This document shows, piece after piece, positions 26,727 to 60,264 of a stretch of 64,000 nt of DNA. The DNA lies in the NCBI GenBank assembly GCA_964434115.1, contig CAYSSX010000004.1, forward strand, positions 81,684 through 145,683. Reading direction: 5' to 3'. The stretch's first letter is position 1, and each line of letters begins with the position of its first letter. Under the pieces are notes generated by a model. The model was not told the DNA's origin and did not search any database. It was given only the letters and a program-made list of their open reading frames with translations. A program made the translations under genes and the position numbers. The stretch is from an uncultured bacterium. Its GTDB lineage: Bacteria > Omnitrophota > Omnitrophia > Omnitrophales > Aquincolibacteriaceae.

Positions 26727-27521
26727 TCAGGAAATAGTTTTCCTTCCTTTAAGGGCGTCGGGAATAAACCACTTACGGGTCCAGGCCTTTAGAACTCGTT
26801 TGGAGAATATTTTCCGGGCCCTTTGATAGAGCTCGGCATCGAGGGCATTCGCTTTCATAATCACCTGGCGGGTTGACAGGCTCATTTGAAAACCCATGTT
26901 GTTCTCCCATCCTCCATTCAGCGGAACATAATCCAAAACTCTCCAATTAAAAACTTCCGAAAAGTGGCGGACTGTATCATCGAACCTTTCCAGTACGCCG
27001 AACGCGGACATTTGTTCACTTAAAATCCGGCTAGCCTTCTCGAGGTCCGCTTCGGTTACAGTTCCAAAAGCCTTATCCATGGTGTCTGAAAGCATACGGA
27101 CCTGAAAATTATCCAATTCCCGGCTGAAGCGGCTTTGGGCAAAAGCTTCCAAGGATAACCCCGGTTCCTGTGTTAGTTTATAGAGATAGTCGCTGGGCGA
27201 TCTCAAAATATGAAAATAAAAAGACGCAATACGGTCTGCGGGATCTCTCAGAAGGGTCAGGTACCGCCATGACCGGAAAGGCAAATCACGGTGGAGCCCG
27301 TAGGGAAAGTGCCCGGAAAGAATCCGGTATTCTTTTTTTTCGGTTTCGGGCAGGGAGAGAAAGTTTTCTTCGTCAAGCCGTGAATGCATCAAACGGATGC
27401 GGACGCCCGGGTAATTGGATTGAAGAAGCCCATTCAGCGTAGTTCCACCGGTTTTTGGAATATGCAGGAAAATGAAACCACGATCATCTTCCTCAGGCTT
27501 TCTAAAACTCATAGCCCGCAC
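26727..27521 (-). CDS. Sulfotransferase (Sulfotransfer_2-like carbohydrate sulfotransferase)
   Basis: PAPS 5'-phosphosulfate-binding motif FLHIPKTGGTT near the N-terminus; 141 nt downstream of the giant ORF on the same strand. Confidence 0.65.
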   Translation of the reverse strand: MRAMSFRKPEEDDRGFIFLHIPKTGGTTLNGLLQSNYPGVRIRLMHSRLDEENFLSLPETEKKEYRILSGHFPYGLHRDLPFRSWRYLTLLRDPADRIASFYFHILRSPSDYLYKLTQEPGLSLEAFAQSRFSRELDNFQVRMLSDTMDKAFGTVTEADLEKASRILSEQMSAFGVLERFDDTVRHFSEVFNWRVLDYVPLNGGWENNMGFQMSLSTRQVIMKANALDAELYQRARKIFSKRVLKAWTRKWFIPDALKGRKTIS

Positions 27522-27662
27522 TTTCTGGGGGTTGGCTTTCCTGAAAAAAACTTACAGAATGGTTGTCATCAATTTAAACGGGGATGTGTCCCGGGTCAAC
27601 TTTAATAAAAAACCTCGTCCGCTTTCCAGGAAAGGATTTTATTAAATACGATTGAACTGGGT

Positions 27663-30600
27663 TTAGGCAGACGCAGAAATACTTCTAAGCGCTTTAAAAA
27701 TCTGCCCAAGATTCGCGAAAGCGCTTGAGCTAGCCTGAACAAAAAGCCCGCTCTTGAGCTGCTGCAGCCGGCTTTCTTCAGCGCCCTGAAGAAGAAGCAC
27801 TGCGGCTTGAAGCAGCGACACACCGTAACCGCGGTTCTTTTCATCAAATTTCAAAAGCGCTCCGCCCGGCAGACGGTCCGCCTGAATTCTTGTCTCCCGG
27901 GCAGGTTCCGGAATCACGCCTTCCGAATCTCCGTCCGCGGTCCAATCCACCCAAGCCGAAAGCGCGCCCTTCGGAATTAAACTGCCGGTCAAGCGGTTTG
28001 AAGCGGTCACAATCGGCATGCGGGAGTAAATTTGGTTACGCACGGCGGCGTCTCCAGGGTATTCGGTCTTAAGAAACTCCAAAAGTTTTTCCCGCAAAGG
28101 CTCGGCGTCTTCATCACGGTCTACGGTCAGTACCACATAATGAGCCTTGGCCTGATTGGTTCCGATCAGAAAGCGGGCGGTATCAAAAATCTGCTCCAGG
28201 GCTTCCCTTTTGGAGGCATCCCGGATATGCGCGAAAAGCGCAATCACTTGTTTGCTGTCCCGCAGAAGGGCCTGAATATTTTCCACCTGATTCTGGAAAC
28301 CTTCACCGCCTTCATTTCGATAGTACGTTTCAACCGCTCCCCTTAAGGCCAAACGGTAATCATTCAGAACCGCACTGTCCCAGGAAGGATCCGCAATGCC
28401 CCCAAGCATCAAGGCCGTGTCATAAGCGTCACGCCCCGTCGGTGCCGCAATAAACGGAAGCCGGACTGCAGGAATATCAAGTGAACCCGGTGCAAAATCC
28501 CTGAGTTCAGAGCGGGTTAAAAATGCGCGGACAGTCTCCGCAGCTGTCAAAATTTCAGGTGTCAAATCCCCTTCTTTCAATACAAGCGGCGGATTGGGGT
28601 TGAGCGGCCAGGTCTTTAATCGGTCAATTTGCCCGACCGCGTGTTCCAGGTAAAAACGCTCTTCTTTTGAATCTGTCAGCGGCGCTTCCACATCAAACGG
28701 ATACTCCACCGGAGTAAAATAAAACCCGGGCGTCTTAAGCGAAAGCCCCATAGTTTCAGCATTCTGTTTCCACTGATGCTGGAAAATTCTGAGGGACAAA
28801 AGCCCGCCTGTGGGAATCTGGGTAAGAACAAAATTCTGCGATTGAACAGCGCCGTCTTTTACGGCCTGGGCCAGCGAAGTCACATTCATGCCTGTATGCA
28901 TGGATTCATCCACGGAATCAAATCCTTTGATTTTGGAAGCAAGGGCAGGATCAAGGGCCAGAATTTCTCTCCGGAGACGCACACGTTCAGGCTCCGCGGC
29001 GCCGCCTTTACCGACAATCACAATTTCAGGAGAGTTAAGTTCACGCGCCTTCTTCACTACGGCTTCGGCGTACCCTTCGTAAGGATTCCCCAAAACCACA
29101 AGCGCATGATCCGCGGGAATGTCTTTGGACTCGGCGGCAAGATGCCTAAACAGCAATTTCGCCGCGCTCTCCTCAGCAGCAGCGCTTTCACTCCGCAATT
29201 CAGAACGTGCTTTTTGAATCATCACATAAGGGATCACATCGTCTCTGCGCTTCACCTGCGTTTTAACAGTCCCATAAACCGCATTTGCAATCTCGGGCGG
29301 CAATACCGCTTTCGCCTGATCACCAAACTGGGCAGGATCCGGAACAATCCCCTCTTCAAAGGCCATGATCAGGATTCCGCCGGGCTTCAATTGCTGAAAC
29401 AGTTGTGTCTTTAAGGTTTCATCAATACTGCGGGGAACAAGAAACCAGGATTTCAAAATGGCTGTGTCTTTCAGGTCAGAAGGTTTTGTAAGAAGCATGC
29501 CGTCCTGAGAATCGAAATCAGCAAGGCCAAGAACCGCGTGGTTTGCAAGAACATCCGGGAGCGCCAGGTACAAAGCCGCTTCACGGCTGTCTGCACTGAA
29601 ACCGGCGTCAGGAGTCAACACGGTCACAGGCTTTTCTGGCTGCTGATTCTGCTGTTCTCTCACTTCGGCCGGAAGACTGTAGTTCCTGAACTGTGCGGCA
29701 AAAACAGGAGAAGCAGGCTGAATGGCTTCGGCTCTGAGTTCGGAGCGCTGATAATCATAGCGCTTCGATTCCAGAAGCACTCGCAAGGCATGGCGGAAAT
29801 TCCGGCGGGTCTCCGCGCTGCTATACAATTCATCAAACGCCGCAGAAAAAACCGTGCGCCCCGCTTTTTCGATCACTACTTTACCGGCTTCGGCGCGCAC
29901 ACCGGCAGAACGCCAGTCGTGATCACGAAAACCGCCCTGAACTTCCGGCAGACTTCCTCCCCGGGTCAGTCCATCCGCAGCTTTTTCAACACTATCCGCC
30001 CAGACAGGCCATTCGCCGAAAATCTGTATAAGGATTTGCCGCGGCTCCTCTGTCCTGAGCACTTGAATATGGATGGCTTCGAACCATTTTTCAGCATAAC
30101 TCACAGCCAACTTGCGGTCTATTCTTGAGAGACGCGCAATGGCCCGAAGACCGTCGATAAAGACCTGAGCCTGCGCATCTGGAAACCCGTAAGATTTCAG
30201 AAAGGCATTGCGGGTGCCAAATTGAACAACTTCATTTTCGATGTCTTTTTCACTGAAGTTCCTCCGGGTTTTAAGAAGCTTCACTCGGACAGGTTCAAGC
30301 AGCGCATGCAGGGCTCGAAAATCACTAAGCCGGGAGGCCCCTTGACCTTTCTCAATGAGACTCTCCAAAATCTCAAGGCCGGCTTGGGCTTTTAAAACTT
30401 CCTCGTCCTTGTCAAAACCCAGGCTGCTGGTGCGGAGTTCAGAGCGTGTATCAGGTTCTGCCGATTCCTCAATCGCAGCTGGCCGGACGGCCTGTTCCAC
30501 CAAGAAAAAAGTTCCTTGGAGCGTGATCCGGTAGGGCCCTTTCACCTTACCCAGCACTGAAGAAACCGTCGTGCTGACAAAAGCGCTTTCCCCTCCATGG

Positions 30601-59089: not shown

Positions 59090-59561
59090 AAGTAAGGTCC
59101 TGCCCTGCCAGCGGATGGTTTCCGTCCAGCGTCACTTCATCGCCTTCGATAGACTTTACGACAAAAACAATTCCGGACCCCATCCCCGCGCTCAGCTGAT
59201 CTCCGACCTTAACCTCATCCGATGGCAGCTGATCTTTCTTCACTTTGATAAAGCGGTCTTCCTGCACAGGGCCGTAGGCGCTGGCCGCGGGCACCTCCAC
59301 CCTTCTTTTCTCCCCCGCAGCCATCTTGACCAGTTCCGTCTCCAGCCCCGGAATAATCTGACCCGCGCCCTTCACAACCGTGAGCGGTTCCTTCCCCTGG
59401 GAAGAATCCAGCACCTCACCCGCCTTATTGGTCAGGGTGTAGTGAAAGGTCAAGATTCCGGGTTTCGGTTTGGTGCTGCAGGAAGAAAGAAAAGGCAGGC
59501 TGCCCAGCCCCAGTAAAAAGATTCCCAACGACAAAATTTTTAAACCATCACTTTTTTTCAT
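59061..59561 (-). CDS. FKBP-type peptidyl-prolyl cis-trans isomerase lipoprotein
   Basis: Start re-assigned to MKKSDGLKILSLGIFLLGLGSLPFLSSCS (lipobox); FKBP core (LTFHYTLTNKAGEVLDSS...VEVPAASAYG...LDGNHPLAG). Confidence 0.75.
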   Translation of the reverse strand: MKKSDGLKILSLGIFLLGLGSLPFLSSCSTKPKPGILTFHYTLTNKAGEVLDSSQGKEPLTVVKGAGQIIPGLETELVKMAAGEKRRVEVPAASAYGPVQEDRFIKVKKDQLPSDEVKVGDQLSAGMGSGIVFVVKSIEGDEVTLDGNHPLAGQDLTFDVEVLSTT

Positions 59562-59652
59562 TGTGCCCGATCCTGTTTTTCTGAACTCGCGTGTCACTCG
59601 TCTGCTCAGACAAAGCGTTTTAAACCATTCCACGGCGTTAATGAAGAAACTT

Positions 59653-60264
59653 TTAGAAAGCCTGCGTTGCACATGCTGATTTTCCGGAAAAGGTATACCC
59701 AAAGTAATCGATGTCAAACGCAAAAAGCCGTCCGACAATTCTCCGGGATTCCGGATCATAATATTCCGTGTACAGCCTCTTGTCAGAGCGGTTCCGGTGC
59801 TGGAGTACCGGATCTTTAACCGGAATCTTCTGCGCCAGTTTGCGGTAGTCCGCTTCAAGGTTTTCAAAACGCCCGGTAAAATCCATGCCGAGGGAACCCC
59901 GTGCGCTGAAAATTTTATTGTAATAACTTTCATCCGTAAAAAGCGCCGGGTTTTCACATTCAACCCGCTTGATAAATTCCGGAAAGGAACATTCAGTGGC
60001 CCGCTTAAAGGCATGAAGCCTCGGCGGATATTCGAGATTGACGGCCTTCTTCATTTGCAAGTAAAACGAAACCGCCCGGTCCCACGGGTTCCGGACAAAA
60101 CAAAACTTGAAGTATTGAGACAGATCGAACTTTTGGCTTTCAAGCCGGGAAAAGGTCAGCCCGCGGTCATGGCGGTAACTTTCACCAAAAACGGAATACC
60201 CAATGCTGGTTCCCGCAGTTTTCCCGTTATGAAAAAAAATGATTTTGGGTTCGCCTGAAATCAT
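59653..60264 (-). CDS. Sulfotransferase (Sulfotransfer_2-like), second copy in the locus
   Basis: N-terminal FFHNGKTAGTSI PAPS-binding motif, paralogous to 26727..27521. Confidence 0.6.
   Translation of the reverse strand: MISGEPKIIFFHNGKTAGTSIGYSVFGESYRHDRGLTFSRLESQKFDLSQYFKFCFVRNPWDRAVSFYLQMKKAVNLEYPPRLHAFKRATECSFPEFIKRVECENPALFTDESYYNKIFSARGSLGMDFTGRFENLEADYRKLAQKIPVKDPVLQHRNRSDKRLYTEYYDPESRRIVGRLFAFDIDYFGYTFSGKSACATQAF

Follow-up and report, generated by a model that had tools for sequence, protein, structure and literature searches.

Does a giant gene that stands among genes for glycan assembly belong to the same machinery as its neighbours? This question is raised by a 64,000-nucleotide stretch of DNA from an uncultured bacterium (contig CAYSSX010000004.1 of assembly GCA_964434115.1, positions 81,684 to 145,683 of the forward strand; hereafter the window), which contains a minus-strand open reading frame (ORF) of 5328 amino acids. 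An earlier reading of the same letters (the original prediction) had joined this giant gene with the transferase genes on either side into one island, 26727-60264, and had named conserved synteny between them as the test. Our analysis points to a different arrangement, which we think probable though by no means secure: two separable things lie side by side, a variable glycan locus and an independently transcribed cassette polyprotein whose modules are set apart by short delimiters, probably protease sites. The case for separability comes from the synteny pattern among related loci together with divergent promoter-like sites between the two.

The giant gene and its delimiters

The giant protein, an identical copy of which is present in the public collection (P0010), was searched module by module (Pfam, NCBIfam, and homologues). 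It contains 11 exact matches to the pentapeptide RSELR, against 0.014 expected, and none occurs elsewhere in the window in any of the six frames. The 11 sites are written in 11 distinct codon combinations; since the codons vary from site to site, selection acts on the peptide and not on the DNA or RNA. A cause of the repeat at the DNA or RNA level was ruled out by these 11 codon sets, and Rfam found nothing in the window. The delimiters divide the chain into the following modules.

27663..43649, minus: giant ORF, 5328 amino acids, cassette polyprotein of 12 modules (S1 to S12)
42003..43649, minus: S1, N-terminal module, 549 amino acids; signal peptide or anchor (MKKAIGLLVLLSFISKEAVWA, followed by D), then a putative Tiki/ChaN/Ere-like alpha/beta hydrolase with a long helical insert
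41364..41987, minus: S2, weakly class-I methyltransferase-like (VLDAGHGTG; E about 0.01 plus motif I); recurs as cassette F6 in P0011
40218..41348, minus: S3, HAD-like by eye (DNTGT...GDGDND); recurs as cassette F3 in P0011, P0013, and L019
39468..40202, minus: S4, HemK/PrmC-like S-adenosylmethionine (SAM) methyltransferase (MTS 7.7e-18; NCBIfam PRK14968 5.7e-27)
36726..39452, minus: S5, NagB-like (glucosamine-6-phosphate deaminase-like) plus PIG-L/LmbE-like (NF002557 1.1e-24; PIG-L 1.5e-4)
33432..36710, minus: S6, 1093 amino acids, with a weak methyltransferase-like region (VVEYGAGAG; E about 0.01 plus motif I); 84% identical to a module in L019
32358..33416, minus: S7, P-loop nucleoside/nucleotide-kinase-like (NF006743 2.9e-5)
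28515..32342, minus: S8 to S11, four modules without family match; S11 recurs as cassette F7 in P0011
27666..28499, minus: S12, C-terminal module, 278 amino acids, Rossmann-like alpha/beta, ending in ...RSISASA
41988-42002, 41349-41363, 40203-40217, 39453-39467, 36711-36725, 33417-33431, minus: RSELR 1 to 6
32343-32357, 30432-30446, 29733-29747, 29193-29207, 28500-28514, minus: RSELR 7 to 11

The polypeptide carries distinct enzyme families without a dominating repeat, as do the Omnitrophota multi-enzyme giant proteins, and a recognition-like sequence of the kind expected in a polyprotein is present at each module junction. Six methyltransferase domains had been counted in it; we found three methyltransferase-like modules (S4 strong, S2 and S6 weak) and no others. 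S3 had no match in Pfam or NCBIfam.

An exhaustive HMMER search with S12 retrieved 24 proteins, in which this module was always C-terminal in proteins of 660-6777 amino acids or lay on fragments. It is common to at least 13 other giant proteins within this size range, 10 of which also have S1. Across 14 family members, RSE[LIVM]R occurs at 68 sites against 0.33 expected; the next residue is Ser, Ala or Thr at 44 of the 68, and the upstream flanks are unconserved. When the giants were split at the motifs and clustered by BLAST, a fixed N-terminal S1 and a fixed C-terminal S12 were found to enclose variable interior cassettes, which reappear in differing orders and subsets, always as whole inter-motif units. 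A minimal protein, S1-RSELR-S5-RSELR-S12, is encoded in a metagenome-assembled genome (MAG) labelled Omnitrophota (L006), and the cargo of relatives includes glycoside hydrolase family 77 (GH77) and APH modules. The same architecture was found in independent assemblies (NCBI, JGI, ENA, and Logan), with modules 60-96% identical to those of relatives at the protein level and synonymous drift.

A second dialect of the delimiter was found in L007, a locus of 67% GC labelled Ca. Eisenbacteria. Its open frame of 6267 amino acids (2330-21130, plus strand) has 16 GARL[AS] motifs at module borders and no RSELR, and its S5 homologue lies between two GARL[AS] that are 908 residues apart, against 909 for S5 of the window. 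Aligned on the Leu, the two dialects would together read [R/G]-[S/A]-[E/R]-L-[R/A/S].

S5 is a cassette also in P0011, P0013, P0016, L006, L019, and L007, and stand-alone S5 genes (933-938 amino acids, 45-49% identical) are present in two unrelated genomes (L003 and L004). Sulfatase genes lie near the stand-alone gene in both L003 (15247-16581) and L004 (1-3602, 9209-10558, and 13099-14553), and the surroundings in L004 also hold a sulfate ABC transporter and a Na/sulfate symporter. This context hints that S5 acts on sulfated amino sugars and suggests catabolism.

The AlphaFold2 (AF2) model of S12 (predicted local distance difference test, pLDDT, 82) gave generic Rossmann-like matches in the fold search, none of them specific, and S12 had no match in the PDB by sequence. 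A Toprim assignment was rejected, its sole support being a weak Pfam match (3.4e-4, under the cut-off) beside the generic fold matches. The final Ala is invariant at the S12 C-terminus across the family. The polyprotein tails are near-identical (...RSISASA, ISKSA, ARSA, VASAA; window 27666-27700, P0011-P0027), and one may speculate that the Ala-ended tail marks the chain for degradation, as a C-terminal degron does, or for a processing protease that acts on C-termini.

In relatives, a second RSELR-delimited polyprotein is often encoded 4-6 kb upstream of the first (L012:1-5971, L014:1-5971, L019:1-4135, and L006:1-4164), with MTS and APH domains and a tail ...GRSA or SRAA. Between the two polyproteins in L012, L014, and L019 lie a conserved 267 amino acid protein and a CHASE-GGDEF protein, a block that the window does not have.

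Cutting at the delimiters or an intact chain

In the reading that we propose, a conserved S1 and a conserved S12 enclose a varying series of whole enzymes that are elsewhere free-standing, with RSE[LIVM]R and then Ser, Ala or Thr at every junction. A protease would recognise these delimiters and cut the precursor there, setting each enzyme free. Cleavage may come after the hydrophobic residue of the delimiter, since aligning RSEL-R with GARL-A/S places the Leu at the same position, and the first candidate for the protease in question would be S1. The cargo is heterogeneous (HemK-like methyltransferase, NagB/LmbE-like, kinase-like, and HAD-like modules, with GH77 and APH in relatives) and shows no fit to the glycan genes beside it. 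Cleavage at the motifs, the position of the cut, the role of S1 as protease and export of the chain are all predictions from sequence patterns. In its fullest form, which we put forward tentatively and with some doubt, RSE[LIVM]R and GARL[AS] would be the processing code of an unrecognised bacterial cassette-polyprotein system, in which an exported Tiki-like S1 cuts the chain and releases the enzymes while S12 serves export or turnover.

The AF2 model of S1 (pLDDT 84) had its best Foldseek matches in the PDB to EreC (6xcq, E 0.06), BcR135, and ChaN, all of them weak (E 0.06-1.1, TM-score about 0.2), and S1 had no match in the PDB by sequence. Three of 16 S1 family members matched Pfam PF04187 (ChaN family, Tiki superfamily), also weakly (best E 0.0027). 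In the family alignment, H76, E104, and G105 are invariant, and R427 and a GG.H motif at 452-455 (GGFH) nearly so, a pattern that we take to be the His/Glu/Arg/GxxH signature of the Tiki superfamily. This superfamily includes the Wnt protease Tiki. These features point weakly to S1 as a Tiki/ChaN/erythromycin-esterase-like hydrolase.

S1 is 72% identical in L005, where S5 is 96% identical, and 45% identical in L012 and L019, where S5 reaches 90-92% (and elongation factor P, EF-P, 98% in L012). Divergence so much more rapid than that of the cargo could reflect diversifying selection on S1, or its replacement. A hidden S12 was sought by BLASTP and hhalign in the stand-alone S1 homologues P0008 and P0009 (about 700 amino acids), as would be expected of an ancestral S1-S12 protein; nothing was found, and the idea was rejected. 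In another S1 homologue (P0004, L024), a peptide of about 18 residues, RR.GQQVPASVPES.DSG, occurs as three insertions, placed in loops and C-terminally, and looks like an in-frame mobile mini-insertion.

The polyprotein might also act whole, as a membrane-anchored megaenzyme or scaffolded metabolon in which RSE[LIVM]R is an uncleaved linker or docking motif. Conservation of the motif at the protein level is compatible with this reading without any cutting; fusion would give stoichiometric co-expression, and a 2026 complete-genome preprint reads such proteins as membrane-anchored cytoplasmic assemblies. We nevertheless hold it to be unlikely, because a strictly invariant pentapeptide amid unconserved sequence is typical of a recognition site and not of a flexible linker, because the modules are unrelated enzymes that are also found as free proteins, and because another lineage has a different, equally strict motif at the same boundaries, which fits co-evolution with a recogniser.

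The glycan genes and the giant gene

The original prediction assigned to the polyprotein the synthesis of the precursor, or the decoration, of a heavily methylated, sulfated and O-acylated glycoconjugate made by the surrounding genes. The features that bear on this proposal are listed below (GT, glycosyltransferase).

25097..26032, minus: LpxL-type lipid A acyltransferase, start of a conserved 3' block; 86% identical to the gene directly after the polyprotein in L012
26727-27521, minus: Sulfotransfer_2 protein (Pfam 1.6e-6, 28.9 bits against a cut-off of 22; loop PKTGGTT)
43942-53589: core glycan cluster, namely GT2 (plus), then on the minus strand methyltransferase, GT-C, methyltransferase, methyltransferase, GT2, Acyl_transf_3, GT-C, and GT9
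43942-44889, plus: polyprenyl-phosphate GT2 (PgfS 1.6e-83 over residues 7-306; ArnC 4.6e-53 over residues 5-306)
44846, 46888, and 47690, minus: three class-I methyltransferases (Pfam/NCBIfam)
45457-46887 and 50442-52280, minus: PMT_2 GT-C proteins (27.3 and 32.6 bits, each above the cut-off)
48499-49365, minus: second GT2 (Pfam/NCBIfam)
49304-50548, minus: Acyl_transf_3 (Pfam/NCBIfam)
52312-53589, minus: GT9 (match covers the C-terminal half only)
53690-54781, plus: exosortase/archaeosortase-family membrane protein (TIGR04178, 37.1 bits against a cut-off of 23)
59653-60264, minus: second Sulfotransfer_2 protein (Pfam 6e-12, 46.6 bits against a cut-off of 22; loop HNGKTAGTS)

Most of the enzyme families first proposed for these genes were confirmed. 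Both sulfotransferases belong to Sulfotransfer_2 (PF03567), with scores above the gathering cut-off and a P-loop-like motif for 3'-phosphoadenosine-5'-phosphosulfate (PAPS; 5'-PSB motif). The assignments of a GtrB/ArnC-like and a second GT2, two ArnT/PMT-like GT-C proteins, a family-3 O-acyltransferase and, for its C-terminal half, a GT9 enzyme likewise held in Pfam or NCBIfam. The GT2 at 43942-44889 matches models of the ArnC/GtrB/PgfS type with a C-terminal transmembrane region over its full length; the PgfS and ArnC scores are under the NCBIfam equivalog cut-offs, so that family membership is supported and orthology is not. The same databases confirm three of the four stand-alone methyltransferases that had been proposed; the fourth, ORF 58211-59089, had no methyltransferase match in Pfam, NCBIfam or the PDB and carries only the motif-I-like string VIETGTFDGQGS.

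Family annotation, together with homologous GT2, GT-C and methyltransferase genes in a Wzx-type polysaccharide locus (L016), makes 43942-53589 plausible machinery for a methylated, O-acylated, polyprenol-linked envelope glycan, to which the two sulfotransferases may add sulfate. This part of the glycoconjugate proposal is supported, and the part that made the polyprotein a component of the machine is not. The cluster would be an envelope glycan locus of the O-antigen, exopolysaccharide (EPS) or lipopolysaccharide (LPS)-modification type with an adjoining exosortase, inserted on the 5' side of the giant gene as a variable, lineage-specific element; both sulfotransferases would be lineage-specific too. 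Among signs of insertion, the window shows no tRNA genes, no long flanking repeats and no GC anomaly. The glycan island as such is an ordinary finding.

The interval 26727-60264 is not one contiguous island, since an exosortase, a FecR-like protein, a TPR protein, one gene without assignment and an FKBP gene intervene between the core cluster and the second sulfotransferase. The exosortase-family gene at the cluster edge, with the FecR-like and TPR genes next to it, had been missed before. The second sulfotransferase ORF is an intact gene, and its apparent overlap with the FKBP ORF (59061-60014, minus) arises because the latter was called over-long: a lipoprotein signal, MKKSDGLKILSLGIFLLGLGSLPFLSSC, lies at residue 152 of the called ORF. 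The true start is probably MKKSDG at about 59561, giving a peptidyl-prolyl isomerase lipoprotein of about 166 amino acids. A 142-nucleotide direct repeat (76% identical; 60391-60543 and 61243-61395, minus) corresponds to the 3' end of a 144 amino acid ORF (61243-61677) and to a truncated copy just upstream of the second sulfotransferase; it is the scar of a local duplication or rearrangement. Two more tandem Acyl_transf_3 genes are located at 11905-14161 (minus), 13 kb downstream of the giant gene, so that, with the LpxL-type gene, envelope-modification genes are scattered over the window and not confined to the proposed island.

Comparison with related loci bears directly on the proposed coupling. 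On its 3' side, the window is collinear with L012 (P0011) and L014 (P0013) over LpxL, a methyltransferase gene (21051-21971), DUF6933, EF-P, MFS, and COX. Given this shared gene order and the identities of EF-P (98% in L012 and 89% in L014) and S5 (90% and 80%), L012 and L014 are orthologous polyprotein loci. Within 10 kb of their polyproteins there is no island gene and no sulfotransferase; upstream lie small ORFs, the CHASE-GGDEF and 267 amino acid proteins and the second polyprotein, and in L012 the next gene after the polyprotein is LpxL, without a sulfotransferase between. A tblastn search with the sulfotransferase 26727-27521 found no homologue in any related locus, and this gene is limited to the lineage of the window. 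L019 has the same upstream context as L012 and L014 plus one GT-C gene immediately upstream, 60% identical to 50442-52280. In other family members, the genes beside the polyprotein encode a transposase and a response regulator (L013 and L020-22), molybdenum cofactor biosynthesis proteins and TauE (L009, L023, and L024) or another polyprotein (L006). The order GT2, methyltransferase, GT-C, methyltransferase, methyltransferase beside the polyprotein start is kept only in L018 (same species as the window and same MAG as L005; 93-96% identity). The best non-trivial homologue of the GT2 at 43942-44889 (63% identical) is found in L016, whose locus has a Wzx flippase, NeuB, two PMT_2, methyltransferases, several GT2 and a GT4, and no polyprotein. 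The transferases are missing beside the giant gene of L012, L014, L013/L020-22, L006, and L009/L023/L024, and the adjacency of the glycan cluster to the giant gene is specific to this species.

Transcription signals agree with a division at the 5' end of the giant gene. The 292-nucleotide gap between the giant ORF and the GT2 (sites at 43693..43897) has TTGACA-17-TATTTT on the minus strand and TTGACA-17-TATGAT on the plus strand, a divergent promoter-like pair, and the divergently oriented GT2 itself lies between the giant gene and the minus-strand island operon. At the other end, the gap of 141 nucleotides from the giant ORF stop (27663) to the sulfotransferase start (27521), as first reported, has a promoter-like site and no terminator-like site, so that read-through into the sulfotransferase is possible.

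That the giant gene and the flanking transferases form one island building a methylated, sulfated, O-acylated glycoconjugate, with the polyprotein making or decorating the precursor, draws support from physical adjacency, kept in the near-identical MAG (L018/L005), from the GT-C gene of L019 and from LpxL, which lies beside the polyprotein in both the window and L012. The missing terminator-like site ahead of the sulfotransferase also fits, as does the amino-sugar chemistry implied by the NagB/LmbE-like S5, whose stand-alone homologues neighbour sulfatase, sulfate ABC transporter, Na/sulfate symporter, GT2, and epimerase genes. Those sulfatases, however, speak for catabolism rather than synthesis, and the sole strong methyltransferase module is HemK/PrmC-like, a protein or nucleic-acid type and not a sugar O-methyltransferase. 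The cargo is freely swapped among relatives, with GH77 and APH appearing and S4 and S6-S10 missing elsewhere. Moreover, the orthologous loci L012 and L014 have no island gene, other family members stand in unrelated contexts, an island-type cluster exists without the polyprotein (L016), and between the island operon and the giant gene stand the divergent GT2 and separate promoter-like sites. Synteny, which the original prediction had named as its test, is essentially absent in relatives; functional coupling is therefore not supported, and we consider the one-island explanation quite improbable. A further rival would make the giant ORF a product of faulty assembly or annotation, or else a row of fused pseudogenes in decay. 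Its many modules without family match and a frame break in S4 of the close relative L005 might suggest as much, but this is hardly credible for a frame open over 16 kb whose architecture is repeated in the independent assemblies, whose modules show 60-96% identity with synonymous drift, and two of whose modules (S1 and S12) gave confident AF2 models.

Our preferred reading, a separate cassette polyprotein with probable protease sites beside a variable glycan locus, has several observations to contend with. RSE[LIVM]R could be an uncleaved linker or docking site. The superfamily assignment of S1 is weak, and proteases are a minority in the Tiki superfamily. The N-terminal hydrophobic segment of S1 follows positive residues, so the chain would be exported, which is awkward for cargo that depends on SAM and ATP. 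No delimiter could be recognised in three giant ORFs whose N-terminus is S1-like (L023, L024, and L026); a search of them found only the threefold QQVPASVPES insertion. The Omnitrophota affiliation is inferred from the labels of related MAGs, of which L006 and P0006 are labelled Omnitrophota/Omnitrophica, L007 'Eisenbacteria' and L005 'uncultured bacterium'. The terminator-free 141-nucleotide gap and the possible glycan link (the L019 GT-C gene, LpxL after the polyprotein, and the amino-sugar-like S5 with its sulfatase and sulfate-transport neighbours) weigh in the same direction.

Known systems and meaning for the family

The present sequence comparisons favour classing the giant gene as a cassette polyprotein of the Omnitrophota multi-enzyme type, described as 'Archaeovorin-type' (West-Roberts et al., 2023) and as class 1 'multi-enzyme metabolic clusters' in the 2026 preprint. 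Like these, it places many unrelated enzyme domains (methyltransferase, HAD, kinase, and sugar metabolism) on one very long polypeptide with a membrane anchor, cleavage into several products is suspected, and related MAGs are labelled Omnitrophota. It differs in length (5.3 thousand amino acids, kAA, against 10-147 kAA); in showing no sign of a C39 or S8 peptidase, SecA, a dockerin or a repeat scaffold; and in that the type II secretion system/pilus and glycoside hydrolase flanks listed in those papers were not seen here. The RSE[LIVM]R/GARL[AS] delimiters and fixed S1 and S12 ends appear in neither source, one of which states the cleavage points as unknown. Our literature search found nothing pairing Omnitrophota with polyprotein, and RSELR only in unrelated alginate lyase motifs, which is not proof of novelty.

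MARTX toxins are also giant bacterial proteins with variable effector modules between conserved ends, and their built-in protease cuts the inter-module linkers, whereas cutting is a prediction here. The MARTX cysteine protease domain (CPD) cleaves behind Leu residues, and these toxins are also reported to have a Tiki-like domain. In contrast to these toxins, Pfam scans found no RTX/GD-rich repeats and no CPD in any module of the giant ORF, the delimiter is an invariant pentapeptide and not a loose Leu-X site, and the cargo consists of metabolic enzymes rather than cytotoxic effectors. With viral and gingipain-type bacterial polyproteins it shares one ORF, several independent proteins and short conserved separators, which in those systems are protease recognition sequences; here, however, the gene is cellular and chromosomal, its cassettes are exchanged among relatives and no viral or gingipain protease was recognisable. 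The neighbouring 43942-53589 has the gene set of ArnC/ArnT-type, O-antigen/EPS, and exosortase-associated EPS loci (polyprenyl-phosphate GT2 plus GT-C, Acyl_transf_3, and methyltransferases), but the window yielded no Wzx, Wzy or initiating transferase, and the Sulfotransfer_2 genes are an unusual addition.

Because cargo and flanks turn over quickly, the function of the giant gene should not be inferred from its immediate neighbours. Whether giant proteins of the Omnitrophota act whole or cut, and where they are cut, was left undecided by two recent studies; the strictly conserved delimiter, which sits at the borders of modules that are free-standing elsewhere and changes dialect between lineages, offers concrete candidate cut sites. 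It also supplies a rule by which giant ORFs can be divided into functional units before annotation and structure prediction, with S1 as a candidate protease. If the processing code is real, the motif could serve to divide the far longer giant proteins of the Omnitrophota in silico into their real products.

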